From positions 3,040,001-3,104,000 of the forward strand of contig OZ251539.1 of assembly GCA_965243135.1 (NCBI GenBank): 64,000 bases of DNA, in the 5' to 3' direction. Below are positions 3,212 through 56,145 of the stretch, piece by piece. The translations under genes were made by a program, and so were the position numbers. This DNA is from Alphaproteobacteria bacterium. GTDB taxonomy: Bacteria; Pseudomonadota; Alphaproteobacteria; MPNO01; UBA830. The notes under the pieces are model-generated. The model was not told where the DNA came from, did no database searches, and saw only the letters and a program-made list of their open reading frames with translations. Numbering within the stretch: position 1 is the first letter of the stretch; each line of letters starts with the position of its first letter.

Positions 3212-3240
3212 TTGACGGTTCCGGCGCGGCGGCCTACCCT
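3212..3240 (+). promoter_or_regulatory. sigma70-type promoter TTGACG-17bp-TACCCT, leaderless
   Basis: -35 at 3212-3217, -10 at 3235-3240, ATG at 3247. Confidence 0.65.
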
Positions 3241-3246
3241 CTTCGG

Positions 3247-17477: not shown

Positions 17478-18410
17478 TCAAGCCTGAAAACCTGCAAATC
17501 GCCGCTCGAGCAGCTCGCGGTCCGGACGGTCATCAGGTTCGGCGGGAAGTCTGAGTTCCGCTCCCTCCAGTCCCTTCAACGAAACCAACAGGTCGCCGTC
17601 GTTCCGGTCGCGCAGCCTCGGCGAGACATGGATGCGAAAATCCGGATCGACGCCGAGCAGGTTGGCGTCGAAGGCATTGTGATGAAGGGTCGACATGCAG
17701 ATTCCGTTGCGCACTGCCGCCAGCCCTCCCTCGGCGTCCGGCACGATGTGCGCGCCCACCAGCAATTCTCTCACGGGCAGGCCGCTGAAGGCGCATCTCC
17801 AGCCGTATGCAGCTTTCGTCCGCATGCTGAACCATGCCTGATGATTCCTGTTCCGGGTCAAGCGCAGCGAGTAGGTCGCTTCGATTTCGGACGGCAGCGC
17901 AGCGAGCGACGCCGCCACGGAGCTTTCCCCGTGGCGCTCGAAATCCGCGGTCGCCACAAGCACGTACCCGTCCTCCGGCCGAAAACTCTCTATCCATACG
18001 GGAAAAACCGGCTGGTACACGCTCGGCTCCACCCCGGCAAAATATATGAGCGGCGCCTTGCGTTCCCAAGCATTTCGCAAGGCCCGATTGGTAGGGTCGG
18101 CAAGCCCGCCGCGAGCAAGCTCGTAACACAGCAAACCTGCATATTCCTGTCGGCTCTCGTCGCCAAAAACCTGATCCTGATACCACGGTTGCCTTCCCTG
18201 CCTTGGAACGGTCGTCCTGATGCTGAGCGCCGCCTCCAGCTGACGAGGCTTGAAAATCCCCCTGGGCTTGCTGGCGAACCGTATCTTCTGACCGTCGACT
18301 TCGAAGCCGGCATCGATGGCTTCCCAAGAAACCCGGCCGCCCTCCCGGAGGCACAGTCTCTCCATGGCCGCGAATGCGGCTGCTCGAACGCGTTGATCGA
18401 AGTCGCTCAT
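17478..18410 (-). CDS. HNH endonuclease, putative modification-dependent (type IV) restriction enzyme
   Basis: C-terminal AYGWRCAFSG...GAHIVPD...NGICMSTLHHNAFD; N-terminal GIFKP...LSIRT...N.AL..A...PLIYF domain. Confidence 0.8.
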   Translation of the reverse strand: MSDFDQRVRAAAFAAMERLCLREGGRVSWEAIDAGFEVDGQKIRFASKPRGIFKPRQLEAALSIRTTVPRQGRQPWYQDQVFGDESRQEYAGLLCYELARGGLADPTNRALRNAWERKAPLIYFAGVEPSVYQPVFPVWIESFRPEDGYVLVATADFERHGESSVAASLAALPSEIEATYSLRLTRNRNHQAWFSMRTKAAYGWRCAFSGLPVRELLVGAHIVPDAEGGLAAVRNGICMSTLHHNAFDANLLGVDPDFRIHVSPRLRDRNDGDLLVSLKGLEGAELRLPAEPDDRPDRELLERRFAGFQA

Positions 18411-18805
18411 TTCCAGACATACTCGCACCACAGGCCGGGAATCCGCAAGAACGAATCCGCGCTCGAGCGCCCGGACGGACGATTCGGCGGACCGGAAACG
18501 AACCACGGATCGCCGTCCGCCGCCTTTCGTCAAATAATAGTTGATTCCATGAATCGGTGACGCTACTTTCGGCGTATGCAAGTTGGACTTCACCGTTTCC
18601 ATGCGGACAGTATCGAGTGGTTCCGAGCGGCAGTCGCCGAGGGTGGTCGCACCCGGCGTCAGTTGGCCCACGGGCTGTGCGAGCGCGAGAACTGGCGCAA
18701 TGAGAAGGGCGAACTTTGCCTCGCCTCGGCGCGACGGATCCTGCCGAAGCTCGCCGAGAAACTCGGGATCGCCTTGCCGCCGCCGCAGGAGCGCCTGCCG
18801 CAGAA

Positions 18806-27716: not shown

Positions 27717-28400
27717 CTAAGATCTTTGAATAGCAACGTTGAACCCGAATTCCGGAGAAGCAAAACAAGAGGTCAACGTCTGAGTTCCTAGCCGCAACCG
27801 CAGGCGCTCAAGAATCGCCTCTTTGCCGGCCCCTCCCGAAAGTCCTCTATTCGCATAGGTCAGCGCACCCGCGAAGAGGTCGGCAACCTGCAGAATTTCG
27901 CTTTCGCGCGACCGGACTTGTTGAATACGTTCGACGCAATACCTATCCGTAGCACCAGCCATGTCGTGCAACCGGCGCATCATCCGATTGCCCCGCGTAT
28001 CCATTACGTTCAGATAAATGCGATAGCTCAGCGGCGAGCGGAGGACAGTATCAAATAACCGGCCATACAGTTCACCATGGAACAAATCTCGCGAGCGATC
28101 AATTGGACTATCTTCTACTTCGATTATGCCATGAAAATCCAGTCCATCATCGTCAAGAACCAGGTCGACAAGGGCCAAATAGAAATCGATCTTCGCTGGA
28201 GATACCTTGGTCCACTTTATCTCGAAGTCGGTTTTGAGGCGATGTTTTTCCTTGAGTGCGCGTACCATTTTCGAAATATTTTCTACTTGTATAGTTTGAC
28301 AAATCAGTACTCCCAGACACATCGCGAATACGCTGCCTCGCGTCAAGTGAAAGCTTTCGTTGCAATATGCGTTAAATTTGGGCTGCATCATCAGCTCCAT
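27717..28400 (-). CDS. DUF3800 family protein, possibly degenerate
   Basis: AYCNESFHL (family usually YCDES), EIKWTKVS, IQQVRSRESEILQVADLFAGA. Confidence 0.75.
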   Translation of the reverse strand: MELMMQPKFNAYCNESFHLTRGSVFAMCLGVLICQTIQVENISKMVRALKEKHRLKTDFEIKWTKVSPAKIDFYLALVDLVLDDDGLDFHGIIEVEDSPIDRSRDLFHGELYGRLFDTVLRSPLSYRIYLNVMDTRGNRMMRRLHDMAGATDRYCVERIQQVRSRESEILQVADLFAGALTYANRGLSGGAGKEAILERLRLRLGTQTLTSCFASPEFGFNVAIQRS

Positions 28401-28413
28401 TTTTTACCCAATG

Positions 28414-28810
28414 TTCAATGATCGTAGCCTGCTGCGCTCGAATTGTCCCACTCTCTGAAAACAATCCTTTGCGTTCGATATTCGCCGAATTTGTCATTTT
28501 CCTTTTTTCTAAAGTATTCGAAATGTTTCCGTCGGATAGTCGAAACCGTGGATATCGGATAGGTCGCGAATGAAGTGCAAATCATCGCGAGTCACCTCGT
28601 AGAGTCTAGCGCAGAACGGGTCTAGTTCATGGCTCGTCGTTCGGGTTCAAAAGCGAAAGGCGGTTCATTGTAGCCGACCTCATGAGCAAGGGGCCTCATC
28701 GTCTCACTTGTATAAACTAGTTCAAGCGCTCGTGGAACAATGAAATTCAAATCTGGTTTTTCGTACGTAGTCGGGGGGAGGCATGGGGTAGATTGAGACG
28801 AAATAGGCTG
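28414..28810 (-). pseudogene. C-terminal remnant of a type IIG (Eco57I-like) restriction-modification enzyme
   Basis: FIVPRALELVYTS...GYNEPPFAFEPERRA, DYPTETFR, FGEYRTQR fragments with stops and frameshifts. Confidence 0.7.
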
Positions 28811-28894
28811 TGCAGGCACCCCTTCCGGGCGCTTTTTTTGACGCCGTTGCAAGCTTTCGGGGCGGCCGTGCACGGCTCGAAAACGGGCGAATGC

Positions 28895-29983
28895 TTATGG
28901 GGCAATCGACGACAACAACTCCCGCCAAGCCTCGCGATGCTGGTATACGCCGCGCCTGTCGAGCTCTTCTCCGACTTCTCGCAGAAAACGAGGCCTCAGA
29001 TCGTCGCTCAGAAGAGCGAAGGTCGAACGAACGAAATTCTTCAATTCCACGAGATGAATGGCGAGACCGGTGTTCCATGCCTCTTCGATTTTAGCCTCGA
29101 CAGCCTCGCTGTCGGACTGGACGATCCCCGGCACGGCGAACAACAGGCGGGTTAGCCTTTCCTCCCCTTCCATCGCCTTGCTGATCGACGAACGCAAGTG
29201 AGCTATCGTCAGGTTCTCTCCCTTCACTTCCACAGCAAGCGCGATCCGGCCGTCTCGTTCCCGGCAGATAACGTCCCCGGGCACCCCGGCTGCTCTGTCG
29301 GCCTCATTCAGTCCTTGGGCATGCACTTCGGAGAACAACGAAAAGGCGTCTCCAAGGATGCGCATGACCGCTGCCGTAACCGCTAGAGGACGCAGACCGC
29401 CGCTCGGTTCCCGCAGGAACTCGTCAAGAATGGCGATAGTGCTGTCAAGGCTGATTCGGTTTGGCACCGGATAGACGAACTCCTGTCGGGAAAGTCTCCG
29501 GGCGACGCTGCGCAGGCATCTGCGAAAGATGTCCTCCAACTCGGCCGGAGAACAATTGTCCAAAACGCTGAACCAGTCCGCCAGTTGCTCCCATGCTTCG
29601 CGATATCTGAGGGCGTTCAGACCGACGTCGAGGCGAGGACGGCGGGCAGGATTGTTCACGTAAGGATCGGGACTGGTTCCGAGCACGTTATGGTTGAGAA
29701 ACACCCAAGGAACGATGACGTTCGAACAGAAGGACCTTGCATCCCATGCGCCTTGTTCGCCATCGGCAGCCTGCAGACAAAGAAGACTTCGGTCATGATC
29801 GGCGACCTTGCCCAACAGCTGGGTCACGACGACGTAGCGCAACGTTACCTGATCGGAATCCACGAAGCGGTCGATATCGGGGTCAGCTTCTGGCACCTGC
29901 GCGGCGGCGGTTTCCGGTGTCGCTTCCTCAACCACTTCCCTCCAGGTCAAGTCGAGGTACCTCTGGACCTCGTCAACGTCCAT
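28895..29983 (-). CDS. restriction endonuclease, SacI-like family
   Basis: RYVVVTQLLGK, GAWDARSFCSNVIVP, LGTSPDPYVNNPAR, GDV...AVEVK. Confidence 0.75.
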   Translation of the reverse strand: MDVDEVQRYLDLTWREVVEEATPETAAAQVPEADPDIDRFVDSDQVTLRYVVVTQLLGKVADHDRSLLCLQAADGEQGAWDARSFCSNVIVPWVFLNHNVLGTSPDPYVNNPARRPRLDVGLNALRYREAWEQLADWFSVLDNCSPAELEDIFRRCLRSVARRLSRQEFVYPVPNRISLDSTIAILDEFLREPSGGLRPLAVTAAVMRILGDAFSLFSEVHAQGLNEADRAAGVPGDVICRERDGRIALAVEVKGENLTIAHLRSSISKAMEGEERLTRLLFAVPGIVQSDSEAVEAKIEEAWNTGLAIHLVELKNFVRSTFALLSDDLRPRFLREVGEELDRRGVYQHREAWRELLSSIAP

Positions 29984-30869
29984 GCGGGTCGTTTCCCTCT
30001 TCAAAATTCAGCCAGAGCGACTCCCGGCGTGGTTTGCGGACGGAATGGCAAAGGCGCTCGTCGGCGTCTTCCCGCCGCCAGCCTCGATACAGTTCGTCGT
30101 AAAGAGCCGTCCTGTATCCGGACAGGATCACGCGGCCGCGAACCGTCCAGAGAGTCTCGGCCAACATTCGATGCTCTTCCTCCGTCATTTCGTGTCCGTA
30201 TGCCGAGGCGTCGCCGCGGGATGAATGAACGTAGGGCGGATCCAGATAAAATACCGTGCCCGCGGTATCGTAACGCCGGATCACCTCAATCGCCGGCGCA
30301 TTCTCGATCTGCACCCGCAAAAGCCTTTGAGCGATCTCCGACAGTCCGTCCACGGAGCCCAGCCACCGGGAAACTGCGCCAGCCATGCCCGCCCGCGACG
30401 TCAGGACGCAGTGGGCCCAGCGTCCCTCGCTGCTCGTTTGCGCCAATCCGGTGCGGGTTTGACGTGCGCGAACGTAGAACCGCCGCGCCCGTTCGAGGTC
30501 CGAAAGGTTCTTCGCAGGCTGGCAAGCGAGAACCAGTTCCTCGCGCGAAAACGGGGTGAGACCGATCGCCTTGATGAGCTCGGGTCCCTGCGCGCGGAGC
30601 GTACGGAAGAAAGTGACCAGTTCGGAGTCGATGTCGTTGTAGGTCTCGACCGGAAACGGCGGAAGATTCAGCAGGACCGCCGCCGAACCGCCGTAAACGT
30701 CGCAGAAATGGGTCGCATCAACAGGGATGCGAGGCAGGATGAAATCGAGATGACTGAACTTGCCGCCGTACCATCCAAAAGCGATGAGGCGCCGCGAACG
30801 TTCCTGCCGGTCGTGCGTCATGACGCGCCGACCGGTACCCGTCGAGTTGACCGAAGCGACCTTATGCAT
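29973..30869 (-). CDS. Dam-like (D12 class) DNA adenine methyltransferase
   Basis: WYGGK, DVYGGSAAV, YNDID, FYLDPPY; overlaps the REase start; alternative start 30821. Confidence 0.9.
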   Translation of the reverse strand: MHKVASVNSTGTGRRVMTHDRQERSRRLIAFGWYGGKFSHLDFILPRIPVDATHFCDVYGGSAAVLLNLPPFPVETYNDIDSELVTFFRTLRAQGPELIKAIGLTPFSREELVLACQPAKNLSDLERARRFYVRARQTRTGLAQTSSEGRWAHCVLTSRAGMAGAVSRWLGSVDGLSEIAQRLLRVQIENAPAIEVIRRYDTAGTVFYLDPPYVHSSRGDASAYGHEMTEEEHRMLAETLWTVRGRVILSGYRTALYDELYRGWRREDADERLCHSVRKPRRESLWLNFEEGNDPHGR

Positions 30870-30907
30870 CCTTACGCGCTCCTTACCTGCCTGCGAGGCT
30901 GATTTCC

Positions 30908-31114
30908 TCAAGTTCGTGCATCACTTGCCGATTCATGGCAAGCGCCGTTCCACGCTTCGCCGCCGGAAAAGCGAAGGTCGGGCGACGCCTCGCCTTTGAA
31001 AACGTGGCCGACATGCTGCGAGTGCGGCTTTTCCAAGCGAGTGACGATCTCGTCGGCAACGTTGCCGAGAACCCGCCAAGGCTCGGCTATCGTGGGGTTT
31101 TGCAGTTCAATCAT
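30908..31114 (-). CDS. small hypothetical protein upstream of the RM pair
   Basis: short co-oriented ORF after an AT-rich promoter-like stretch; no recognised motif. Confidence 0.3.
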   Translation of the reverse strand: MIELQNPTIAEPWRVLGNVADEIVTRLEKPHSQHVGHVFKGEASPDLRFSGGEAWNGACHESASDART

Positions 31115-32472: not shown

Positions 32473-34014
32473 TCAGGCGGCCTCGCAATCGAACCCGACG
32501 ACGTTGCGCTCCTCGCGGCTGAACTCCACTCCGATCAGGTGGACCGAACGACCGAAATGGCGGTACTTGTCCGCGTAGCCCTTCTCTCGCAGCTGCGCGA
32601 TCGCGGTCCCTTCCCGCCCGCGCTCCACCACCTTGAACTCGAACAGGTAGACGCGCCCGTCGGCGCGGATCGCCATGTCGGCGCGCCCCCGGCTGCCGCT
32701 GTCCTCGGCCACCGGCTCGAAGCCCTCCATCAGAAAGCAGCTGTGGATAACGCTCGCGTAGTGGGCCTCGTACTTCGCGACGGGGTTGTTCATGTACCAT
32801 TGGTGCGGAATGGCGGCGAAAACGCCGCGGAACAGGGTCCCGATGCGCTTGAAGTCGTTCGCCTCCAGCAATTCGCCCAGCCGCAAGCGCCCCGTCTTCT
32901 TGCGCGCCTCGGCCGGGAGCAGTTCTCCCAGCAGGGCCTCGCCCAGGCTCTGGCGCACCTCGAGGTTCGGGTAGTCCAGCCTGTAACGTCTCCCGCCGTC
33001 CTCCTCGCCGGCGATGGTCAGGTAGCCGGTCTGGAACAGAAGCGCCTCGACCGAGATATTGTCCACGTCGAAGGCCGAGAGCAGGCTCTCGCTGCCGGTC
33101 ATGCCGTCCAGGTCGGGAGTGGGCAGGCCGCGGCGCGCCAGCGTCTCGACCAGGAAGGTCGGCGTGCCGCTCTCGAACCAGTAGTTGCCGAACCTGCGCT
33201 CGGCGAGCAGCAGCAGGACGCCGAACGGGTTGTAGAGCTTCTCCGGCCCGCACCAGTTGTAGCCGTTGTACCAGCGCCGGATTTCGTCCCGGTCCAGGCC
33301 CTCCAGTTCCGGGGCGAAGACCGCGTCCAGCTCCGCGTCCGTGTAGCCGCAAATGTCGGAGAACTCCGGCGCCAACGTGATGTCGCGCAGGTTGTTCAGG
33401 CCAGAGAACAGGCCAGCTTTCGAGAACTTGCTCACCCCCGTCAGGAAAACGAAACGGAGCTGCCTGTCGCAAGCCTTGATCGCCCCGTACAGGCTGCGCA
33501 GGAAATCGCGGTTGGCCCGCGCCAGATCCCGATCGCCGAGCGCGTCCAGAATCGGCTTGTCGTACTCGTCCACCAGAACGACCGCCCGCTGTCCGGTGCG
33601 CTCGTGCAGGGCCGCGATCAGTTCCCGGAAGCGGATCGAAACTCTGGCGCTGCCCGGCTCGATGCCGGCCAGCCTCTCCGCCGCCTTCAGTTGCGATTCC
33701 GTTTCTTCCCGAACCCCGTCCGGGTCGCCGAAATCGCCCCCGCCGAAATCCAGCCGCACGACCGGATGGCGCGCCGACCAGTCCCACCCGTCGTGCACGG
33801 CGAGACCCCGGAACAGCTCCTCGCTTCCCTCGAACAGCTCCTGCAGCGTGTCCACCAGCAAGCTCTTGCCGAACCGGCGCGGACGCGACAGGAAGTAGTA
33901 ATCGCCTCCTTCGACAAGGCGGCGCAGATGGTCCGTCTTGTCGACGTAGTGGCAGTCTCTCGTCCGGATTTTCCGGAGGGACGTCATGCCGATCGGAAGC
34001 ATGCGTTTCGTCAT
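32473..34014 (-). CDS. AAA-ATPase-like + PD-(D/E)XK nuclease protein, copy 3 (divergent C-terminal half)
   Basis: RPRRFGKSL, DEYDKP, GRADM...FEFK. Confidence 0.9.
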   Translation of the reverse strand: MTKRMLPIGMTSLRKIRTRDCHYVDKTDHLRRLVEGGDYYFLSRPRRFGKSLLVDTLQELFEGSEELFRGLAVHDGWDWSARHPVVRLDFGGGDFGDPDGVREETESQLKAAERLAGIEPGSARVSIRFRELIAALHERTGQRAVVLVDEYDKPILDALGDRDLARANRDFLRSLYGAIKACDRQLRFVFLTGVSKFSKAGLFSGLNNLRDITLAPEFSDICGYTDAELDAVFAPELEGLDRDEIRRWYNGYNWCGPEKLYNPFGVLLLLAERRFGNYWFESGTPTFLVETLARRGLPTPDLDGMTGSESLLSAFDVDNISVEALLFQTGYLTIAGEEDGGRRYRLDYPNLEVRQSLGEALLGELLPAEARKKTGRLRLGELLEANDFKRIGTLFRGVFAAIPHQWYMNNPVAKYEAHYASVIHSCFLMEGFEPVAEDSGSRGRADMAIRADGRVYLFEFKVVERGREGTAIAQLREKGYADKYRHFGRSVHLIGVEFSREERNVVGFDCEAA

Positions 34015-34020
34015 CCAAAG

Positions 34021-34049
34021 AGAGTAGGCCGCCGTGCCGGAACCGTCAA
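34021..34049 (-). promoter_or_regulatory. promoter TTGACG-17bp-TACTCT, leaderless
   Basis: -35 at 34049-34044, -10 at 34026-34021, ATG at 34014. Confidence 0.7.
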
Positions 34050-34204
34050 GAAGTCGGCGGCGGCAGGCCTGTCCCGCGCTGCGTCCCCTGGCGCGACAAG
34101 CAGCCGGCAATTTCCGCGGCGGCACGGGCGGGCGGCGGGGAAAAGCGCGGAGGCGAGCGAACCCGCCGCTCCGCGGAAATCCTGCCCCGCCCGCAGCAGG
34201 CGAC

Positions 34205-34500
34205 CACGATTGCAAGTACGTTCGACACGCTCAACGAGCGGCTTGGAGGCCGCGGGCGAACGCCTACGGAAGGCGCCGCCAGCAAAGGCGACGCGCGTCG
34301 GCACCGACGTCAACGCCGGCTTCGCGAGCCTCGACGGCAAGGTCGACGCCCTCGTCGCGGAAACCAGGGCCGACGCAACGCGACGGCAAGCGCCCTCGCC
34401 AGGGAAAGCCGCGCGCCTCGAAACCAGTACGATGATCGTCGCGGCAGGCCTCGCAGCCATACCTGCAGCTGGTTCGGCGCCGGAGATCCGCGCCCGCGAC
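34205..34500 (+). pseudogene. possible remnant of a DUF1640-like coiled-coil protein
   Basis: fragments FDTL..., LEAAG, VNAGFASLDGKVDAL, LETSTMIVAAGLAAI in shifting frames. Confidence 0.3.
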
Positions 34501-36481: not shown

Positions 36482-37102
36482 ATGCGTGTCCTGTCGAACA
36501 TCCAGCCGACGCCCGAGCAGCTGAAGATATTGGTTGACGACCTTTCGGGTTTTCGGCTGATGCGAGGCGCGGCCGGCTGCGGCAAGACAACTACGGCGCT
36601 ACTGCGCCTCCGCCAACTTTGCCGGTCACGGCAGAACAGAAAGAATCGGCTGGGCCACGAAGACCCTGTCCAGGTTCTCGTTCTTACTTTCAACAGAACG
36701 CTCCGCAGCTATGTCTTGCAACTTGTCAGGGAGCGGATTCCGAACTCGGACGATTTCGTCATGCTGCTGTCCTTTCACCCCGACGTTCTCGACCACCAAG
36801 GTGTGGTTTTCACGACGACGAACAACATCTATCCCGCTTGCGAGCGCGCCGAAGGGCTTGCCGGTTTCGAAGCGATGTTCGCTGACCGGGTTGTCGGCCG
36901 TTACGGCCGAATGCATAAGGATAAGAAGCCTGCTTGGCCCACGGACCGGCAAGCGGAAGTTCTGTATCCGGGCGAATTGTCGTGCAACCACCTGCTCACG
37001 ATAGAAGTTCAGATGGAACGGACTGCCGACACGATAATGGGCGCGTTGGGGAGCCTCGACATGGATTTGTGCGTTCGCCACGCGCCGGAGGTGTTCTTAT
37101 GA
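36482..37102 (+). pseudogene. in-frame chimera: SF1 helicase N-terminus fused to the C-terminal half of a DarT-like (DUF4433) ADP-ribosyltransferase
   Basis: PTPEQ, RGAAGCGKTT, VLVLTFNRTL then FTTTNNIYP...GFEAMF...PTDRQAEVLYP; no Walker B, no N-terminal ART strand. Confidence 0.7.
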
Positions 37103-38805
37103 AGCAGCGAGACATGTTCCCCGGATCCATAGCGTCGCGTAGCGTGGAGGCTTCCGACGACCGGAGGGAAAGCACTCGGAGATCCGCTCTGTGGGCAGCT
37201 TATGGCGACGCGCTCGGGTGGATCAGCGAATTGGCGGACGAGTCGGGGCTGCGGCGTCGGACAGGCGGCGCGGCGCTGCGCCGACCCGTCGAATGGACTC
37301 GGCGGATTGGCGGCCGCGCAGGCGTTCAGGTTCCGCTTCCGCAAGGCTGCTATTCTGACGATTCGCAGTTGCGGCTCGCGACAAGCCGCGCCGTCGGCGT
37401 CGACGGCTTCGATGTCGAGGCGTTCGCCAAGGTGGAACTGCCGATCTGGCTGAGCTACGCGCTCGGCGGAGGAAAATCGACGAGCGCCGGCGCGCGCAAC
37501 CTGGCCAGGCGCGGCACGCGCTGGTTCTCCAACAGCTTCAAGGGATGGGCGCGGTCTGGAGGAAACGGCGCGGCGATGCGCGTTCAGCCGCACGTATGGG
37601 CATCGCCCGCTCCCGGCGCCGCAGAGAGCTTTCTTCCCGACGTGGTGCGCAACGCGATTTGCACTCATTCTCATCCAACCGGAATCATGGGTGCGGTTTT
37701 GCATGCGCTTACGGTCGCTCGCGCGGCGGAAACCGGTCGGCTCCCGTCTCCCGACGACCTCATGACCGCCGTTGATACCGCGGCTGCCCTCCCGGAAATG
37801 ATCCAGGGCGATACGGAGGTTGGAGTTTATTGGCGCATGGCCGTAGAAGCGGAGACGGGCGCATTCGACGAAGCGTGGGCTCGGGCGGTCGGCAAATGCC
37901 GGGAGGCCGTTGACGAAGCGATCCGGATCGTCGGTAGGAGCGCTTCCGAGCCGACGGGAGCGAATGGTTACGCAGCGCTCGTCGCAGGCTTTCGGCTACG
38001 GGACGCGGATAGAAGAGGGGACGGCATTTTGACGGCGGTGACCGCCGCAAGCTTGGGATGGTGCGAGCCGCGACCCGAAGAAGCTTTGGTCCTCGTCGCG
38101 AATGCGCTCGGCACGGATACCGACACCATCGCAACGATGGCCGGCGCGATTTTCGGCTTTATCGCCGAAGCCGAGCCGCCGGTCGATGTTCTCGACGCGA
38201 CGTTGTTCCGGTCGGAAGCTGACCGGCTGGCGGAGATCGCGCACGGCGGTGGAAGAACCGTGCACCGCTATCCTGATTTGCTGCATTGGGTGGCGCCGGC
38301 GACGCGCAGCGATGCATTGACCAGATTGGAGGATGGAGCTTTATGGGTGCGCGGGCTTGGACGGGCCGTGGCGAAAGACAATCCTATCGCCCCGGAGAAG
38401 GGCGAATTCCAGTGGCAGTGGGTCGAACTCGAAGACACGGGTCAAACTTTGTTGATCAAACGCCGCGAGGTTCTCGCCTTATACGAGGAAACGACCGGCG
38501 CGGCGCCACCCTCGGGACGCGGTGCGTCGGATCCGGCCTCTCTGCAAACCGGAAAAATCGCGGAAACTTCGTCGAAATTTGTACAGAATCCTTCAGGGAG
38601 CGCGAGCGAACGTCCCAACGCGCCGCATGACCTGCAAGGCGTTCTGGAATACATGGAGAAGAACAAGAACGATGACCGGCTTGTTGGCGCCACGTTCCGC
38701 CGTGTCGTCAACAAGGGCACGCCGGGAGAAATCGCAGCGTTCACCGCAGCGATGATAGATATGCTCCGACATCCTGCAGACGCCCAGCGCCGCAGCTCAG
38801 CGTAA
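37099..38805 (+). CDS. ADP-ribosylglycohydrolase (ARH/DraG family) with C-terminal extension
   Basis: AYGDALG, YSDDSQL, GGNGAAMR, CTH, GTDTDTIATMAGA; ATGA overlap with the upstream ORF. Confidence 0.9.
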   Translation: MKQRDMFPGSIASRSVEASDDRRESTRRSALWAAYGDALGWISELADESGLRRRTGGAALRRPVEWTRRIGGRAGVQVPLPQGCYSDDSQLRLATSRAVGVDGFDVEAFAKVELPIWLSYALGGGKSTSAGARNLARRGTRWFSNSFKGWARSGGNGAAMRVQPHVWASPAPGAAESFLPDVVRNAICTHSHPTGIMGAVLHALTVARAAETGRLPSPDDLMTAVDTAAALPEMIQGDTEVGVYWRMAVEAETGAFDEAWARAVGKCREAVDEAIRIVGRSASEPTGANGYAALVAGFRLRDADRRGDGILTAVTAASLGWCEPRPEEALVLVANALGTDTDTIATMAGAIFGFIAEAEPPVDVLDATLFRSEADRLAEIAHGGGRTVHRYPDLLHWVAPATRSDALTRLEDGALWVRGLGRAVAKDNPIAPEKGEFQWQWVELEDTGQTLLIKRREVLALYEETTGAAPPSGRGASDPASLQTGKIAETSSKFVQNPSGSASERPNAPHDLQGVLEYMEKNKNDDRLVGATFRRVVNKGTPGEIAAFTAAMIDMLRHPADAQRRSSA

Positions 38806-43505: not shown

Positions 43506-44509
43506 AATTCTGCGTGTTCGGAGCGGGCGCCGTCGGCGGATTCGTCGGCGGCATGATGGCGCGATCCGGCGCCGAGGTTTCCCTGATCGCGCGAGGCGAG
43601 CATCTCGCGGCGATGCGCCGAGGCGGCCTGAAGGTCGTCGCCGGAGACGAAGAGTTCACGGCCTCGGCGACGGCCACCGACCGGCCGGCCGATCTCGGAG
43701 AGCAGGACGTGATTTTTCTTTCGACCAAAGCGCATGCGCTCGCCGACGCGGCGGCGGCGATGCAGCCGCTGCTTGGAAGCGACACCGTCGTCGTCGCGGC
43801 TCAGAACGGCCTGCCGTTCTGGTATTTCCACGCTCATGGCGGCCCGCATGACGGGCGGACGCTGCAGAGCGTCGATCCCGGCGGGAGGATCGCCGCCGGG
43901 ATCGGACGCCGCCGCGCGATCGGATGCGTCATCACGTCGAGCAACGAGGTGGTCGCGCCCGGCATCGTCCGCAACGTCGGAAATCGGACTTTCGCTCTCG
44001 GCGAACCCGGCGGATCGCTGTCCGACCGCCTTCGCCGCGTCGCCGCGGCCATGGAGGCGGCCGGCCTGGAGGCGCCCCTCCATTCGAAGATCCGCGACGA
44101 AATCTGGCTGAAGCTGTGGGGCAACGTTTCGTTCAGCTGCATGGCGGCGCTGACGACGGCGCGCCTCGGCCCGTTGGTCGAGCGTCCGGATCTCGGGCGG
44201 CTGGCCACCGTCATCATGGAAGAAGTCCGGAAGGTGGGAGAAGCGCTGGGCGTGACGTTCCGGGACGGCATCGACGGACGGATCGCCAACACCCGGAAGG
44301 TGGCGGGACACAAGACCTCGCTCCTGCAGGATCTCGAACGGGGACGCCCGATGGAAGTGGACGCGATCGCCGGATCCGTGATCGAACTGGCGCGCCTGCT
44401 CGGCTTGGAAACGCCGACGGTCGATCTGATCTACGCCCTGCTTCGGCAGCGGGCGCGGGAAGCAGGCCTCTACCCGGAAACCGGATTCGACCCGCTCGCC
44501 CCTACCTGA
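43502..44509 (+). CDS. ketopantoate reductase family protein
   Basis: GAGAVGG, AQNG, WLKLWGN, KTSLLQDLERGRPMEVD. Confidence 0.9.
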   Translation: MKFCVFGAGAVGGFVGGMMARSGAEVSLIARGEHLAAMRRGGLKVVAGDEEFTASATATDRPADLGEQDVIFLSTKAHALADAAAAMQPLLGSDTVVVAAQNGLPFWYFHAHGGPHDGRTLQSVDPGGRIAAGIGRRRAIGCVITSSNEVVAPGIVRNVGNRTFALGEPGGSLSDRLRRVAAAMEAAGLEAPLHSKIRDEIWLKLWGNVSFSCMAALTTARLGPLVERPDLGRLATVIMEEVRKVGEALGVTFRDGIDGRIANTRKVAGHKTSLLQDLERGRPMEVDAIAGSVIELARLLGLETPTVDLIYALLRQRAREAGLYPETGFDPLAPT

Positions 44510-44964
44510 AAGACCGCCTCGACCTCGATGGCGACGCCGAGCGGCATGGACGCCACGCCGATCGCCGTGCGCGCATGACGACCGCATTCGCCGAACAGTT
44601 CGTTGAACAACTCGGAAGCGGCGTTCAATACGTGCGGCACCGCGGTGAACTCGGGGTCGACGTTGACGTAGCCCTTGATCTTGACCACCTCCTCGATGCG
44701 GTCGAGATCGCCGAGCGCCTCCTTGGCGCAGGCCAGAACCATCAACGCGCTGGCGCGGGCGGCCTCCCTTCCTTCCTCGAGGGAGAATTCTCGCCCGACC
44801 TTCCCGACGAAAGAGACCTCGCCGTCGACGCGCGGCACCTGCCCCGAAACGAAGAGCAGATCGCCCGCCATTTTCCAGTTTCGAATTTTGGCGACCGTCG
44901 GGCTGGCGGTGCCGGGCAACGCGACGCCCATCTCCGAGAGTCTCGCTTCGATCTTTCCCGCCAT
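44470..44964 (-). CDS. RidA/YjgF family protein
   Basis: FVSGQVP, LNAASELF, GRHARTAIGV..LGVAIEVE. Confidence 0.92.
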   Translation of the reverse strand: MAGKIEARLSEMGVALPGTASPTVAKIRNWKMAGDLLFVSGQVPRVDGEVSFVGKVGREFSLEEGREAARASALMVLACAKEALGDLDRIEEVVKIKGYVNVDPEFTAVPHVLNAASELFNELFGECGRHARTAIGVASMPLGVAIEVEAVFQVGASGSNPVSG

Positions 44965-45080
44965 TTTTCCGGCTCCTTGAATTTCGGCTGGCAACCCAAC
45001 GGGTTCCCCTAATCAACTCCGAGATTGCCCCCGCCTGATTCGCACGACGGCGCGCCGACCAATCATCGCAGGATTCGCGG

Positions 45081-45476
45081 TCAAGGGTTATAGGGTTCCA
45101 TGGTCGGAGACGAAGTAACCCGCGCGGAGCTCACGGAGCTGAGCGAACTCGCGGTGGAAGGAAAGCTCCCAATGGTTGCCGCCGAGCTCGCCGTGTTTGG
45201 GGCCGAGCCGCCGACGACCGCCATCAGCGCCTCGTCCCGGAGCGTCCGGTTCGGGTCGGGAGGCATGGCCAAATGGAAGGTGTCGTGGGTGTTGAGGACG
45301 ATGTTCACGTCCACATCCATCGACACATGGATTCCATGTTCCCGCAGAACGTCCTTCGGACGCTCCTCGACCTCGCGCAGCCGATCCTCGTCGGAATGGC
45401 AGGCGTCGGCGAGGCCCTGAAGAATGATGCCCTGCTGGCGAACATATTGGTAGATGCCTTCCTGGTGAATATGCAT
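45081..45476 (-). CDS. NHLP/proteusin-type RiPP precursor with Ser/Thr-rich core
   Basis: nitrile-hydratase-like leader (ERPKDVLREHGI...VNIVLNTHDTFHLAMPPDP), cleavage motif LRDEALMAVVGG, core SAPNTASSAATIGSFPSTASSLSSVSSA... Confidence 0.8.
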   Translation of the reverse strand: MHIHQEGIYQYVRQQGIILQGLADACHSDEDRLREVEERPKDVLREHGIHVSMDVDVNIVLNTHDTFHLAMPPDPNRTLRDEALMAVVGGSAPNTASSAATIGSFPSTASSLSSVSSARVTSSPTMEPYNP

Positions 45477-45578
45477 GGTCGTCTTCCCTGCGATGTTTAG
45501 GCTCAGGACTCCCGCTATCGACTCCGAAGCGCAATACCGGCGGTCGGTGTGTGTGGCTGTGTGTGGCTGTGCAAGGAC

Positions 45579-45608
45579 AGTATGGGGATGGGTTGGCCGG
45601 TAAGTCAA
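45579..45608 (-). promoter_or_regulatory. putative promoter TTGACT-18bp-CATACT for the precursor gene
   Basis: -35 at 45608-45603, -10 at 45584-45579. Confidence 0.5.
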
Positions 45609-45749
45609 GGCGCGGTGCCGGGTCGCCAGGGCGAATTCAAGAATGGCGCGGTCATTGCCAAGCGCTGCCCGCGAGGAGGCGGCAGCGTCGCGAGATCCGC
45701 ATCGGCGAGACGATGGCGGCGCGAGGCGGCGGCGGCGCGAGGCCACCGG

Positions 45750-45960
45750 TCGGGCGTCAGAAGACCTCCGTGGTCAGCTCTCGAACGGCCTGGCGCGAAT
45801 CGTAGTGCCGGTGAGCCTGCGGCAGGTAATCGTCCGCGCAACCGAACGATGGAGATCGCGGCATTACGGGCCAGTGCACGGGCACTGCCGCCGACGTGGT
45901 TGCGGCGGCGATCCTCGTCGTAGGTCATGTCGCGAACATACGGCCGCGTTGTCCACGAAC
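45750..45960 (-). pseudogene. ISAs1-family transposase C-terminal remnant
   Basis: YVRDMTYDEDRRR...NAAISIVRLRGR. Confidence 0.65.
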
Positions 45961-46149
45961 ACGGTCGGGACCGTCGCGGTGACGCAACAGGGAATCCAGG
46001 GGGCCGCGTCGCGCCAAACGATCGACGAGACCCCTCGGGAAAGTCACCGAGGCGCGCTCGGGCATCACAGGACGCGAGGCGCCTTCCGCGAGGTTCCCTT
46101 AAAGGCATTTCGCCTTGGCGGAAGCGGCGCAGCGCAACCGCTTCTCTCT

Positions 46150-46178
46150 TTGACCGCCACGGTCCGCGGGCGTATTCT
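46150..46178 (+). promoter_or_regulatory. promoter TTGACC-17bp-TATTCT, leaderless
   Basis: -35 at 46150-46155, -10 at 46173-46178, ATG at 46185. Confidence 0.7.
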
Positions 46179-46184
46179 GTCCGA

Positions 46185-47753
46185 ATGGAAAAACGCATGC
46201 TTCCGATCGGCCTGACCTCCCTCCAGAAAATCCGGAGGAGGGACTGCTACTACGTCGACAAGACGGACCATGTGCGCCGCCTCGTCGAAGGGGGCGATTA
46301 CTATTTCCTGTCGCGTCCGCGCCGGTTCGGCAAGACCCTCCTGGTGGACACGCTCCAGAAGTTGTTCGACCCTCCTGGTGGACACGCTCCAGAAGTTGTT
46401 CGAGGGAAGCGAGGAGCCGTTCCGGGGCCTCGCCATACACGGCAAGTGGGACTGGTCGGCGCGCCGGTGCGGCTGGATTTCAGCGGCGTGGGCCGTTTCG
46501 ACACCCCGGACGGGGTTCGGGGAACCGTGGAAAGGCAACTGGCGGCGACGGAGAGGCGCGCCGGCCTCGAACCGGGTCCCGCCGGGACGGCGGTCCGTTT
46601 CCACGAGTTGATCGAGGCCCTGCACGAGCGCACCGGACAGCAGGCGGTCGTTCTGGTCGACGAATACGACAAGCCGATTCTGGACGCGCTCGGCGACCGG
46701 GAACTGGCGCTGGCCAACCGCGATTTCCTGCGCAGCCTGTACGGGGTGATCAAGGCTTCCGACGAGCAACTCCGTTTCGTTTTCCTGACGGGGGTGAGCA
46801 GGTTTTCGCGGGCGGGCATTTTCTCGGGCCTGAACAACCTGCGCGACATCACCCTCGATCCGCGTTTCGGCGCCATCTGCGGCTATACCGACGACGAGCT
46901 GGACGCGGTCTTCGCCCCGGAACTCGAGGGCCTGGACCGGCAGAAGGTCCGGCGCTGGTACAACGGCTACAACTGGCGCGGACCGGAGAGGGTCTACAAC
47001 CCGTTCGACATCCTCCTTCTCTTCGAAACGCGCGAGTTCGAGGAGCACTGGTTCCAGACCGGCACGCCGACCTTCCTCGCCGACCTTCTGGCGCGTCGCC
47101 GGGTCTCGGCGCCGGACCTGGAGGGCGCGGTCGCGAACGCCACGCTGCTGTCGGCCTTCGACGTCGACCGCATTCCCGTCGAGACGTTTTTGTTCCAGGC
47201 CGGTTATCTGACCATCGCCGACGAGAAGCGGGACGGGGACGCGCTCCTTTACCGGCTGGACTACCCGAACCAGGAGGTGAAGCGCAGCCTGAACGAGCTC
47301 CTGCTGCAGACGATGGCGCCGGGCGTCGCGGTCGCGGCGGAGAGCCAGGAGTTGCGCCGCCTGATGCGGACGAACGACTTCGCGGGCATCGAGCGGCAGT
47401 TCCGGGCGTTGCTGGCGAGCATCCCGAACGAACGGTGCGCGAACACGGGCATGGCCGGCTACGAGGCGCACTATGCGAGCGTGTTCTACTCGCACTTCGT
47501 GGCGGCGGGAATGGACGTCCGCGCCGAGGAGAGCACGGCGCGCGGCCGCTCGGACCTGGCGGTCCTGTACGACGGCGGCGTCTACCTGTTCGAGTTCAAG
47601 GTCGCGGACGGGAAGGGGCGGGCGCTGGCGCAGATTCGGGAGCGCGGCTACGCGGACAAGTACCGGCGTCCGGGCGTGCCGGTCCACCTGATCGGCATCG
47701 AGTTCGGCCGGGAAGAACGCAACATCGTGGATTTCAGGTTCGAGACCGTCTGA
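46185..47753 (+). CDS. AAA-ATPase-like + PD-(D/E)XK nuclease protein, copy 4, with a compensated internal frameshift (possibly nonfunctional)
   Basis: 34-bp tandem duplication 46336-46403 plus a 7-bp net loss near 46465 restores the frame. Confidence 0.8.
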   Translation: MEKRMLPIGLTSLQKIRRRDCYYVDKTDHVRRLVEGGDYYFLSRPRRFGKTLLVDTLQKLFDPPGGHAPEVVRGKRGAVPGPRHTRQVGLVGAPVRLDFSGVGRFDTPDGVRGTVERQLAATERRAGLEPGPAGTAVRFHELIEALHERTGQQAVVLVDEYDKPILDALGDRELALANRDFLRSLYGVIKASDEQLRFVFLTGVSRFSRAGIFSGLNNLRDITLDPRFGAICGYTDDELDAVFAPELEGLDRQKVRRWYNGYNWRGPERVYNPFDILLLFETREFEEHWFQTGTPTFLADLLARRRVSAPDLEGAVANATLLSAFDVDRIPVETFLFQAGYLTIADEKRDGDALLYRLDYPNQEVKRSLNELLLQTMAPGVAVAAESQELRRLMRTNDFAGIERQFRALLASIPNERCANTGMAGYEAHYASVFYSHFVAAGMDVRAEESTARGRSDLAVLYDGGVYLFEFKVADGKGRALAQIRERGYADKYRRPGVPVHLIGIEFGREERNIVDFRFETV

Positions 47754-47819
47754 AGCCGGGAGCCGTCCCGTTCGAACATTTCGGCAGGCGGCGCCTCCGC
47801 GAAAGGCGTCGGCAGACCG

Positions 47820-53704: not shown

Positions 53705-54481
53705 TCATTCGCAAACCACTCCGTCCCCGTCCGCGTCGCGCATGAAGGGGTACGCGGGATGGCCGCGCCGCACGGGCGCGATGCCGTGACGCCGCGCTTC
53801 CCGGCAACTGATTCGTCCGTTGCGGTTGTCGTCCCAGCGCTCCGGCGCGGCGCTGGAAGGCCGGTCTTTCCGCGAGGGGGGCGCAGGCGCCGCGACAGCG
53901 TCGCCCAGAACCAGTTCGGTCGAGGCGCAAGCGGAAAGAACCCTTTCGAGAGCGTTCGCTTCGCGCCGGTCGATCGTAAGGCCGTATTTGAGCCGCACCT
54001 GAAGAACGCGGTCCGCAAACCAGCAACGGTTCATCGGCGGCATCCAGTCGGCTGCGTCGTGGTGCCGCTTCAGTCTGCGGTTCACGCGTGGCCCGGCGAG
54101 CGTGAGGTTGAGAAGATCGGAAGCGAAACGCCGCCGGGTCGCGGCGTCGGCCGCGCACAGGCCGCTGTCATGGGCCTCCGACACGGCCACCATGTGTTCG
54201 ATATCCGTGTCGCGCGGCCCCGAAAACCTGCGTCCCGTGTACGGTCCGAAATAGCCCCCCAGACGGGCCGCGATCCGCCTCTCGACGGATTGCGAGTAGG
54301 GATAGTCGCGGCGGTTGTAGGGCGAGCAACGGTTTTCGGGGGCAACGACGAGGCCGCGCCAGCTCTCGGCGGCGGCGGGAACGGGAAGCGTCCAGACGGC
54401 AGTTGCGAAGAGCGCGGCAAGAAAAGGAACTCGCAATCGATTGACGCGCGCTTCGTTCCGGAAATCGGTCTGACGGATCAT
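53705..54481 (-). CDS. secreted His-Me finger nuclease (DUF1524-like) with C-terminal Excalibur Ca-binding domain
   Basis: signal peptide, DIEHMVAVSEAHDSG, DLLNLTLA...N..K, ending RDADGDGVVCE. Confidence 0.8.
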   Translation of the reverse strand: MIRQTDFRNEARVNRLRVPFLAALFATAVWTLPVPAAAESWRGLVVAPENRCSPYNRRDYPYSQSVERRIAARLGGYFGPYTGRRFSGPRDTDIEHMVAVSEAHDSGLCAADAATRRRFASDLLNLTLAGPRVNRRLKRHHDAADWMPPMNRCWFADRVLQVRLKYGLTIDRREANALERVLSACASTELVLGDAVAAPAPPSRKDRPSSAAPERWDDNRNGRISCREARRHGIAPVRRGHPAYPFMRDADGDGVVCE

Positions 54482-54670
54482 GAATTCCTCGCTTCTGCCG
54501 ACCGAATAATAACCCGAAACGCGCCTCGGACGAAATATGCCGACATGACGCCGGAAGAGGTTGCGGGGCTTTCGAACGTCGCGGCTCCTTGACTCGCCTG
54601 CCGCGCCGTTCCGATACTGCTCTCGCGGCAGAGATTGCCGAGCGCCAGCGTTGCACTTCAGGATCAAGAA

Positions 54671-55078
54671 ATGCCGACTAATGGAACGTCGCCGTTCGGT
54701 GCGGGAGGGCTTGAAGAGGCCCTCGAAGAACTGGAACGGATTGACGAGGAGGCCGGGGAAGAAGGATACCCTCCGGTTTCCGATCAAGCCAAAAGCGAAG
54801 CGCGACGCTTGCTGCATGCAGCAGGAACCTTTCCTGTCGAGCCTTCCGTGTATCCGTCGATAGACGGAGGAGTCGCAATATATTTCAAGTCGCCGACCAT
54901 GCCATCGGCGATTCTCGTTCTCGTTGAGAATAGCGGACACGCAGCTTGTTATGCTTCTATCCGCGATAAAATGGAACGCAAGGCTTACCGGAATTCATTG
55001 GAACTTCCGGATGAATTTCTGGAAACGCGACTACGCTCGCTGTGCGGATTTCCTCGACCGCACAAGCCCGGAGAGTGA
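54671..55078 (+). CDS. hypothetical protein, possibly 5'-truncated
   Basis: protein-like composition, PSVYPSIDGGVAIYF; upstream frame contains a stop. Confidence 0.5.
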   Translation: MPTNGTSPFGAGGLEEALEELERIDEEAGEEGYPPVSDQAKSEARRLLHAAGTFPVEPSVYPSIDGGVAIYFKSPTMPSAILVLVENSGHAACYASIRDKMERKAYRNSLELPDEFLETRLRSLCGFPRPHKPGE

Positions 55079-55254
55079 CGAGGCTTCGTCCAGTATCCGA
55101 CGCCTCGGCCGAAGCGCATTTCCGGCGTTATCGGCAAAGACGACCACGCTGTCGACAGTCCCGCCCAAGAGGTCTCATGCAATGGACGATCGCGTTTACG
55201 TCCGAGGGACGGACCAGGAATTTTGTCGAACCGGCGAAGGAATTTCCGGCCCGC

Positions 55255-56145
55255 CTACTCCTTCGCAGGCGCCTTAAACACCTGCTCCGCGTGCCATTCG
55301 ATATGTTTCTTCGCAGGAAAATACGATTGTCTCTGAGGAGAGTTTATCTTTGCGCGGTGAAAACGCCCCAGCCATTCCCGCGAACCCGAACCGTGAACGC
55401 GTTCCGACACAAGTATGTTCAATCGATCCGATAGCCTGAACGCTCCCCGGTCGAACAGCTGATGGTGCAAGGTGCAAAGCGCCAGTCCGTTGTCCTCCGT
55501 ATCGGGACCGTCGGCTTGGCGCCACCTGATGTGCGCCGCATTCAGTCCGACAGCGGAATTTCCAATCCTCATATCGAAGCCGCATACGGCGCACCGGTAC
55601 TCATAGGCCCTCAAGACGTTCTCGCGGAAACCGTCCCAACGCCTGTCCCGCTGCGTGGCTTCGGGAGAATCGATTGGAGAATCGAATTCTATGCCGACAG
55701 CCAACATGATGTCGTCATGATACGACAATGGAAAATGCGCGTTCAGGAGGTCGCGGACGATCCGCTGGGCCAGCACCGGGTCTTTCCGGATTTCATCGGC
55801 GATTTCCCGGGTAAATCCGCCGCTGGTCGGAGCCAAGTCCCTTTTGCTTACGTCCCCGCTCGCATTCTCGACTATCCCGTCGACATTCGTGACCTTCCAC
55901 AGCCTGTCTTTCCTCATCCGCCAATACGGGTATTGGGTGCGATCCGAGCCTGGCGTGCCGAACTCGCGCAACAGTTCTCGCAAGCGCGCGTCGACCTCCG
56001 GATAGGGAGTCAACCGCTCCCCGCCCTGCAACAACTTTCCGATCGCATACAGAACGAGCAACGGCTTGTGAGGCGCCCTTCGCCCATCCTTCGTGCTCCC
56101 TATATTCAGAGCAGCGAACTTCTCGATGACCGACTGTCTATCCAT
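55255..56145 (-). CDS. SBD-HNH endonuclease, putative phosphorothioate-dependent type IV restriction enzyme
   Basis: RAPHKPLLVL and YPYWRM sulfur-binding-domain-type motifs; AYEYRCAVCG...AAHI...NGLALCTLHHQLFDRG. Confidence 0.8.
   Translation of the reverse strand: MDRQSVIEKFAALNIGSTKDGRRAPHKPLLVLYAIGKLLQGGERLTPYPEVDARLRELLREFGTPGSDRTQYPYWRMRKDRLWKVTNVDGIVENASGDVSKRDLAPTSGGFTREIADEIRKDPVLAQRIVRDLLNAHFPLSYHDDIMLAVGIEFDSPIDSPEATQRDRRWDGFRENVLRAYEYRCAVCGFDMRIGNSAVGLNAAHIRWRQADGPDTEDNGLALCTLHHQLFDRGAFRLSDRLNILVSERVHGSGSREWLGRFHRAKINSPQRQSYFPAKKHIEWHAEQVFKAPAKE

Follow-up and report, generated by a model that had tools for sequence, protein, structure and literature searches.

The precursor gene and its signals

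The 64,000-nt stretch analyzed here (the window; contig OZ251539.1 of an Alphaproteobacteria bacterium) carries on its minus strand a small gene encoding a probable precursor of a peptide made on ribosomes and modified after translation (RiPP) of the proteusin type, consisting of a leader peptide resembling nitrile hydratase (NHLP) followed by a core rich in serine and threonine. The gene and its associated elements are as follows.

45081..45476, minus strand: precursor gene (P0001), 131 codons plus stop, defined from the list of open reading frames (ORFs), the translation, the TIGR03793 match and eight relatives of the same length
45207..45476, minus strand: NHLP leader (residues 1-90) with the L(X)4L motif LRDEAL and, last, VVGG at its end, from the TIGR03793 and 8TB1 matches
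45084..45206, minus strand: core, residues 91-131, Cys-free with 18 Ser/Thr residues and the tail ...SPTMEPYNP, from the translation and a shuffle test
45483..45489, minus strand: Shine-Dalgarno-like AGGGAAG, 7-13 nt 5' of the ATG, read from the sequence
45579..45608, minus strand: TTGACT-18-CATACT, resembling a sigma-70 promoter, some 100 nt upstream of the ATG, a match to the consensus only

The gene is enclosed in a longer ORF (45081-45746, minus strand), and reading from the ATG at 45476 returned a protein of 131 amino acids, whose leader ends in LRDEALMAVVGG and whose core is SAPNTASSAATIGSFPSTASSLSSVSSARVTSSPTMEPYNP. A previous description of this DNA, made without database searches (the sequence-only reading), had divided the protein into a leader of 90 and a core of 41 amino acids, and translation from this ATG showed the division to be accurate to the residue. 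Eight public relatives share with the window protein both the MHI... start and the length of 131 amino acids.

Two promoter-like sites were found in the region against 0.1 expected. No intrinsic terminator-like site was detected in 44900-46300, hence none between the precursor gene and the downstream RidA-family gene, and an Rfam search of the same interval returned no match at E<=1. None of the 20 public runs listed for the precursor gene is an RNA run. The AlphaFold2 model of the precursor, calculated from an alignment of the family (A1), showed a mean predicted local distance difference test score (pLDDT) of 48.6, helix being present only at residues 5-46 with a pLDDT of about 70.

The leader is of the NHLP type

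The leader was compared with family models and with solved structures. TIGR03793 (leader_NHLP, NCBIfam) aligned through model positions 7-77 of 77 with residues 20-90, up to the GG, at an E value of 3.1e-10, and a profile of 31 subfamily members matched the solved NHLP structure 8TB1 (E 2.9e-6, residues 16-94). Both results support the NHLP assignment made in the sequence-only reading, the former with a score under the curated cut-off. The same subfamily profile also matched nitrile hydratase alpha chains (E 0.008-0.06), and Pfam NHase_alpha recognized the leader at E 6e-4 through its C-terminal part only (model positions 118-175 of 184). The CxxCSC metal-binding motif is absent from the 131-residue precursor, where VVGG occupies residues 87-90. 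Alignment A1 shows no variation at L79 and a conservation of 90% or more at L84, the two leucines of the L(X)4L motif; this motif and a folded N-terminal helix are described as the contact between an NHLP and the RiPP recognition element (RRE) of a YcaO cyclodehydratase (PMC12455567).

The core carries a regular Ser/Thr pattern

The core had been described as Ser/Thr-rich and Cys-free with a repeated TASS, and all three properties were found in the translation, TASS being present twice. The regular SS pattern that had also been pointed out corresponds to four consecutive [S/T][S/T]X triplets after Pro-18 of the core, namely ST-A, SS-L, SS-V and SS-A. A run of at least four [S/T/C][S/T/C]X triplets occurred in 280 of 100,000 composition-preserving shuffles of the core. 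A match of the core to the thiocillin family (E 0.0029, 17.8 bits, cut-off 25) was judged compositional and discarded.

The core was then compared with those of 48 public homologues, 45 of which have a recognizable core, giving 46 cores with the window protein. The number of Cys residues per core is 0 or 1 in 42 of the 46 relatives; Cys-free cores account for 7 of the 46, one of these being a truncated form, and most of the others carry exactly one Cys. The PYNP tail occurs in 11 of the 46 cores, four of which are Cys-free. In A1, conservation reaches at least 90% at both P106 and S107, and the residue after them is Thr or Cys, Thr being present in the window copy. Two sites show fixed-position exchanges, Cys for Ser in 'VG[C/S]A' and Thr for Cys in 'PS[T/C]', with Ser and Thr respectively in the window protein, and a 99%-identical variant differs solely by a Thr to Cys change at the 'PS[T/C]' site. 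Such an interchange of Cys, Ser and Thr at fixed core sites is the pattern expected of azole-forming positions. The seven public relatives with 76-99% identity all retain the length of 131 amino acids and the PYNP tail; the eighth relative of this length (P0025) has a different tail type.

Between paralogs in the same genome, the ratio of non-synonymous to synonymous substitution rates (dN/dS) was 0.43-0.75 for the leader and 0.65-1.48 for the core, values that come from small samples and are descriptive. The leader is under moderate constraint and the core is near neutrality; a conserved leader joined to a free-running core is the usual pattern of a precursor library.

Sibling precursors are dispersed in the genome

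The genome consists of one contig (C1) of 6.10 Mb with 65% GC. A genome scan with TIGR03793 returned 22 matches: 19 intact short frames, one frame with an in-frame TAG and two matches in a true nitrile hydratase alpha gene, which lies at C1:4156268-4157173 (minus strand) and has the CTLCSC metal site. Only 4 of the 22 matches score above the curated cut-off. The subfamily of the window gene, which is lineage-specific and here called group A, comprises six of the 19 intact ORFs, that is, the window gene, an identical twin and paralogs with 75, 64, 64 and 61% identity. These data substantiate the dispersed precursor library suggested by the sequence-only reading; the suggestion is correct, but such libraries have been described for NHLP families since 2010.

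The twin is located at C1:4192332-4192724, 1.1 Mb from the window gene, among an NYN-domain gene, a phage VG64-like gene, IS66 debris, obg and proB, and is as orphaned as the window copy.

Other NHLP-type genes were observed away from group A. Three tandem precursors near the first cyclodehydratase of the cluster described below have a closely similar second tandem copy at C1:2208891-2210031 (L044), which adjoins EF-Tu and SpoU methylase genes and has no maturase among the six neighbouring ORFs scanned; it is a further orphaned part of the library. Probably a separate small RiPP locus, L045 (C1:114537-114758 and C1:120854-121237) combines a different NHLP-type precursor, the best TIGR03793 scorer of the genome at 63.5 bits, with the genome's second gene for a C39-peptidase transporter at a distance of about 6 kb.

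A distant proteusin cluster encodes candidate maturases

Genome-wide Pfam counts were 2 for YcaO, 1 for DUF4135 and 2 for Peptidase_C39, all outside the window, and the genome's one proteusin cluster (C1:3.78-3.815 Mb, 0.70-0.73 Mb from the window gene) holds both YcaO genes, the DUF4135 gene and one of the two C39 genes. Within the window, 49 distinct ORFs, selected by codon-position GC from the larger set of its ORFs, gave no Pfam match to YcaO, DUF4135/LanC, Radical_SAM or Peptidase_C39, in line with the maturase-free 64 kb of the sequence-only reading. That reading had also called for a genome search for RRE-bearing maturases, and fused cyclodehydratases with the TIGR03882 leader-binding domain were indeed found about 0.7 Mb away. 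The window precursor is an orphan only locally. Three genes of the cluster are located as follows.

C1:3782853-3785189, plus strand: fused cyclodehydratase, TIGR03882 leader-binding domain plus TIGR03604
C1:3810658-3813030, minus strand: second fused cyclodehydratase (TIGR03882 plus TIGR03604), 97% identical to the first
C1:3790162-3791658: PoyD-like radical-SAM epimerase, TIGR04517, full length, 705 kb from the window gene

The two 97%-identical cyclodehydratase genes face each other at the cluster ends, so that a recent inverted duplication encloses the cluster. It also encodes a SagB dehydrogenase (TIGR03605, 155 bits, cut-off 78) and a LanM-type dehydratase (DUF4135) of about 800 amino acids, which covers LanM model positions 78-704 of 932 and in which the cyclase domain was not recognized. 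The polytheonamide dehydratase PoyF resembles the N-terminal part of LanM, and a dehydratase-only LanM relative is likewise present here. The export genes (C1:3794153-3800904) matched TIGR03794, TIGR03796 and TIGR03797, all above cut-offs, and correspond to the HlyD, the ABC1 with C39 and the ABC2 components of the NHLP system; a TolC gene is also in the cluster. Further genes encode two Asp/Asn beta-hydroxylase-like proteins, two NlpC/P60 proteins and an APH-type kinase.

Precursor genes are present in the cluster as well. Three tandem NHLP precursors belong to another subfamily, a 75%-identical group-A sibling lies at C1:3805683-3806090 and a 64%-identical one directly upstream of the PoyD-like epimerase gene. 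Broken frames were observed beside them, namely an NHLP-like frame with an in-frame TAG at C1:3813974-3814165 (plus strand) and a pair of group-A fragments, one of them interrupted by an in-frame TAG, at C1:3805342-3805540 (minus strand), beside the 75%-identical sibling.

The presence of a LanM-related protein, together with the length of the leader and its GG end, the size of the paralog family and the Ser/Thr richness of the core, might recall a prochlorosin-like class II lanthipeptide precursor served by a promiscuous LanM. A genome-wide search for LANC_like returned no match, the LanM-related protein covers only the model positions given above, and because the core has no Cys no thioether can form. 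A lanthipeptide identity is excluded in practice.

Relatives in other genomes

A precursor with 70% identity and the same PYNP tail was found in an alphaproteobacterial metagenome-assembled genome (locus L060), among four tandem NHLP genes directly followed by an epimerase gene whose product is 83% identical to the PoyD-like epimerase of the present genome. A large ORF beside these precursors was considered as a maturase and rejected, as it has no Pfam match and no good counterpart in this genome. A second candidate locus (L061) shared 34% identity over 47 residues and was set aside, leaving L060 as the only true relative of the two loci in the genome collection.

On a wider scale, 4 of 41 genomes of relatives, the present genome (G000) included, matched at E<=1e-8, with no match above 52% identity outside G000. 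In a class-wide sample, 1 of 401 genomes matched at E<=1e-20, namely G000, and a scan of JGI metagenomes with A1 returned 112 pattern matches, none of which was a relative.

Both PoyD-like epimerases show, in an N-terminal stretch at about residues 37-97, a weak similarity to peptide models of the NHLP clan. The proteins encoded at L041:12162-13658 (minus strand) and L060:11014-12603 (plus strand) matched NF038399 with E values of 3.6e-7 and 1.6e-6, and Pfam Frankia_peptide at E 0.005. Judging from these matches, a leader-like segment seems to be part of the PoyD-like epimerase itself.

Proposed maturation in trans by the distant cluster

Our working interpretation, to which we assign a probability of roughly 60%, is that the window gene encodes a proteusin-type RiPP precursor matured in trans by the distant nostatin-like cluster, nostatin A being the proteusin product of a Nostoc sp. 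compared in the last section. On our best reading the product would be a nostatin-like all-oxygen proteusin containing oxazoles and dehydro-residues. The oxazole or dehydro-residue chemistry held plausible in the sequence-only reading is that of the published nostatin A pathway, which uses the same enzyme set on a similar core pattern (PMC11583998). That reading is supported overall, as NHLP similarity, sibling precursors and maturases, whose absence it had named as grounds for refutation, were all found in this genome. The 90-residue NHLP leader would fold as a small domain and recruit enzymes encoded about 0.7 Mb away. The PoyD-like radical-SAM epimerase would act on the group-A precursor. 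Through the LanM-type dehydratase and the fused YcaO cyclodehydratase paired with SagB, the (Ser/Thr)(Ser/Thr)X triplets would become dehydroalanine/dehydrobutyrine-(methyl)oxazole units of the kind known from nostatin A. The C39 peptidase/ABC exporter, with HlyD and TolC, would finally cut after VVGG and export a linear, sulfur-free peptide of 41 residues. The data show the gene and its family, its twin and siblings, the set of enzymes and the conservation among relatives, and from these we infer transcription, recognition in trans and every chemical step of this proposal.

Several observations weigh against this interpretation. With regard to the precursor itself, the TIGR03793 score of 39.8 bits is lower than the NCBI curated cut-off of 50.9, the leader is followed by GGS in the window copy and by GGK in most siblings, and a core dN/dS near 1 fits diversification and relaxed constraint alike. 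As to its genomic context, the ORFs scanned within 64 kb of the precursor are maturase-free, no maturase was found among 11 ORFs scanned in 16 kb around the twin, and beyond G000 group A was found in one further genome only. On the enzyme side, the PoyD-like epimerase scores 315.7 bits against a cut-off of 325, the LanM model score is also just below its cut-off, and the scanned ORFs of the cluster included no NstA-like B12 radical-SAM methyltransferase, for which no genome-wide search was made. Three further points concern the pairing of precursor and enzymes: MprC, the NHLP cyclodehydratase of a methanotroph, is described as leader-selective and as preferring Cys over Ser/Thr (PMC12455567); the N-terminal helices of group-A leaders differ strongly from those of YcaO-adjacent leaders; and in the L060 genome group A and the epimerase lie at 0.94 Mb, with both YcaO genes at 3.87-3.89 Mb beside another leader subfamily. 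The sole conserved group-A neighbourhood is the epimerase, not YcaO (2 of 2 genomes). As this neighbourhood is with the epimerase alone, the link of the YcaO and LanM-type enzymes to group A rests on the core itself.

The same evidence lends itself to a different explanation, in which group A is served by the PoyD-like epimerase, and perhaps by the Asp/Asn hydroxylases, and neither the cyclodehydratase nor the LanM-type dehydratase accepts it; a linear peptide of mixed D and L residues, free of azoles and dehydro-residues, would result. This possibility is suggested by the location of a group-A precursor directly upstream of the epimerase in both genomes examined and by the distance between the L060 precursor-epimerase pair and the YcaO genes (about 1 Mb around the circle), the latter adjoining a different leader subfamily. 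It is also consistent with the dissimilarity between group-A N-terminal helices and YcaO-adjacent leaders, as MprC is reported to select for the N-terminal helix of its NHLP and to prefer Cys (PMC12455567). However, the core pattern and the fixed-site Cys/Ser/Thr swaps are hard to explain without side-chain chemistry at those positions, group A retains the L(X)4L motif, and in the present genome the epimerase and a group-A gene share a cluster with YcaO, SagB and the dehydratase. In addition, the single NHLP precursor of nostatin A is described as being handled by all four enzyme types (PMC11583998). We consider service by the epimerase without ring-forming or dehydrating enzymes unlikely, though it is the strongest competitor of our reading.

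The precursor gene belongs to a duplicated 0.6-kb unit

The identity between the window gene and its twin extends beyond the coding sequence and includes short repeated elements.

45012..45613, minus strand: duplicated 0.6-kb segment, other copy at C1:4192195-4192801, 99.0% identical over 607 nt, coding part identical
45511..45613, minus strand: dispersed element of about 100 nt, a promoter-like block and a block ending in a 17-nt motif (motif at 45511-45527)
45006..45022, minus strand: second copy of the 17-nt motif, degenerate (14/17), at the 3' edge of the duplicated segment; exact copy at the twin

In their flanks, one mismatch and a 5-nt indel separate the two copies. Contigs with each of the two junction forms of the duplication were found in the public runs X1, X4 and X5, and public DNA runs of three studies, possibly including the one behind this assembly, contain contigs identical to the precursor gene. 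The 0.6-kb unit, made up of the gene, the promoter-like element and some 70 nt of 3' flank, was copied recently to a second orphan site, and we take the copy to have arisen by a recent recombination or transposition-like event between dispersed repeats.

The duplication raises the question of whether the window copy is silent or decaying, a stray product of recombination beside insertion sequence debris that is neither transcribed nor processed. Both copies lie amid mobile-element remnants and unrelated genes, the TIGR03793 score is under its cut-off, the window copy lacks both the Lys that usually follows GG and the one Cys found in most siblings, the core dN/dS is about 1 and broken relatives exist at C1:3805342-3805540 and C1:3813974. 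Against this, the frame is intact and is preceded by Shine-Dalgarno-like and promoter-like signals, and the coding sequence is identical between the copies though their flanks differ. Moreover, the leader dN/dS is below 1, seven relatives at 76-99% identity keep the 131 amino acids and the PYNP tail, and four of the 11 members with this tail have a core without Cys. On balance, a dead copy appears rather improbable.

Both blocks of the dispersed element recur in the same order at six loci besides the window copy and the twin (C1:4191267-4191354, 4209367-4209455, 1943178-1943261, 3335839-3335926, 787059-787145 and 4765091-4765168), and these copies diverge completely past the 17-nt motif, often into AT-rich DNA. 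The motif itself is present at 39 genome sites with up to two mismatches, chance expectation being about 1 by our own estimate; three or more upstream contexts are seen among these sites, some of which serve as the 3' arm of a hairpin. The twin locus has a tandem of two units, the phage VG64-like lipoprotein gene first and then the precursor. A mobile cassette could be imagined from this arrangement, in which the element of about 100 nt with its outward promoter, the gene and the closing 17-nt motif travel as a unit with the precursor as cargo, a speculative proposal to which we give little credence. If it were true, with the 17-nt motif as the site of a dedicated recombinase or a rolling-circle-type transposase, the symbiont would spread and shuffle RiPP precursors and other small genes by an integron-like, undescribed mechanism that would act as a builder of the precursor library.

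Surroundings of the gene in the window

The surroundings in the window consist of housekeeping genes, defence genes and repeats. The immediate neighbours of the precursor gene are listed below.

44470..44994, minus strand: YjgF/RidA-family gene, downstream neighbour, not a maturase, from Pfam
45625..45939, minus strand: remnant, 3' part of an ISAs1-family transposase gene, from a dispersed repeat and protein identity
45927..47753, plus strand: AAA-ATPase_like plus PDDEXK_9 gene, upstream neighbour, not a maturase, from Pfam and a repeat family

The ISAs1 remnant reported beside the precursor gene in the sequence-only reading was supported indirectly. The ORF of 45625-45939 has no family match when searched alone; it shares 75% protein identity with part of a 372-residue frame located elsewhere in the genome, and that frame matches the C-terminal part of NF033564 (ISAs1 family transposase) at E 1.2e-19.

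The AAA-ATPase_like plus PDDEXK_9 gene belongs to a very large, massively amplified repeat family and is one of four copies in the window (45927-47753 on the plus strand, 85-2301, 2440-4794 and 32473-34215). A blastn search with 46368-47754 returned 120 genome matches of at least 1200 nt, itself included, with 74.7-92.8% identity, and 22 partial ones. Defence-type genes are dispersed at 17478-18959, 27717-30911, 36482-38805 and 53705-56145. The types present in the window are two HNH_2 proteins, a DUF3800 protein, a SacI-like restriction enzyme with a D12 methylase and a GmrSD_C/Excalibur protein; a further pair consists of a DarT-like ADP-ribosyltransferase followed by an ADP-ribosylglycohydrolase.

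Comparison with known systems

The closest parallel to the proposed pathway is the nostatin A system of Nostoc sp., described as comprising the precursor NstC, the cyclodehydratase NstD, the azoline oxidase NstE, the PoyD-like epimerase NstF and the LanM-like dehydratase NstG (PMC11583998). According to the same source, nostatin A is built of X-Dha/Dhb-(methyl)oxazole/thiazole tripeptide blocks (Dha, dehydroalanine; Dhb, dehydrobutyrine), a mid-core Pro-Ser-Cys is invariant in homologous clusters, and these clusters occur in cyanobacteria and proteobacteria. The likeness, drawn from the published description of the Nst proteins, consists in the NHLP leader, in the same four enzyme types, which are present in the distant cluster of this genome and not at the window locus, and in the X-(Ser/Thr)-(Ser/Thr/Cys) triplets after a mid-core Pro-Ser-(Cys/Thr). 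The systems differ in that the core here has 41 amino acids against 30 and ends in the conserved ...PYNP, precursor and enzymes are 0.7 Mb apart, and the cluster has additional Asp/Asn hydroxylases, NlpC/P60 proteins and an APH-type kinase. Since the window core lacks Cys, thiazoles and the Cys-derived sactionine bridge described for nostatin are impossible here.

The peptide predicted here would be a relative of nostatin A with 41 residues and no sulfur, with dehydro-residue/oxazole units and possibly D-residues. Its producer is apparently a sponge-associated, uncultured alphaproteobacterium; sponge symbionts have been the subject of a survey of NHLP clusters with YcaO and PoyD enzymes (PMC9426513). 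As nostatin A is described as a low-nanomolar cytostatic (PMC11583998), natural all-oxygen variants would be useful for structure-activity work.

Polytheonamide-type proteusins (PoyA, PoyD; PMC12426817) share with the present system the NHLP leader and a PoyD-family epimerase. In contrast, their cores are hydrophobic and azoles are not reported for them, whereas the present genome combines YcaO and SagB with a Ser/Thr-dominated core. The Mpr system of a methanotroph, in which one NHLP cyclodehydratase (MprC) is described as acting on ten precursors (MprE1-10), resembles our proposal in the use of one enzyme for many NHLP precursors and in recognition via L(X)4L and a folded leader (PMC12455567). 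It differs in the preference of MprC for Cys, as the candidate enzyme here would need to accept Ser/Thr-only cores and group-A leaders. Prochlorosins show the same scattered precursors, conserved leaders and hypervariable cores served by one promiscuous enzyme, ProcM (PMC2887384), but have a Nif11 leader and lanthionine chemistry, neither cyclase nor Cys being present here.

Finally, the genomic arrangement agrees with the report of Haft, Basu and Mitchell (2010), who described NHLP precursors, including those of thiazole/oxazole-modified microcins (TOMM), in large paralog families with some members far from modification genes (PMC2887384). The common traits are a long nitrile hydratase-like leader up to GG, large paralog families, ABC export by TIGR03794/03796/03797 and some distant precursors; group A is distinguished by its position under the TIGR03793 cut-off and by being unusually Cys-poor. 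A description of the group-A subfamily was not found in a non-exhaustive search of the literature, supplements excluded. A stray precursor far from its enzymes is an arrangement already known for this peptide class, so that for RiPP biology the gene is one more example and not a new principle. Its separation from the enzymes, 0.7 Mb here and about 1 Mb in the relative, means that cluster-based genome mining would miss it, and a small ORF that looks unannotatable is tied by the present analysis to a concrete pathway and a product prediction.

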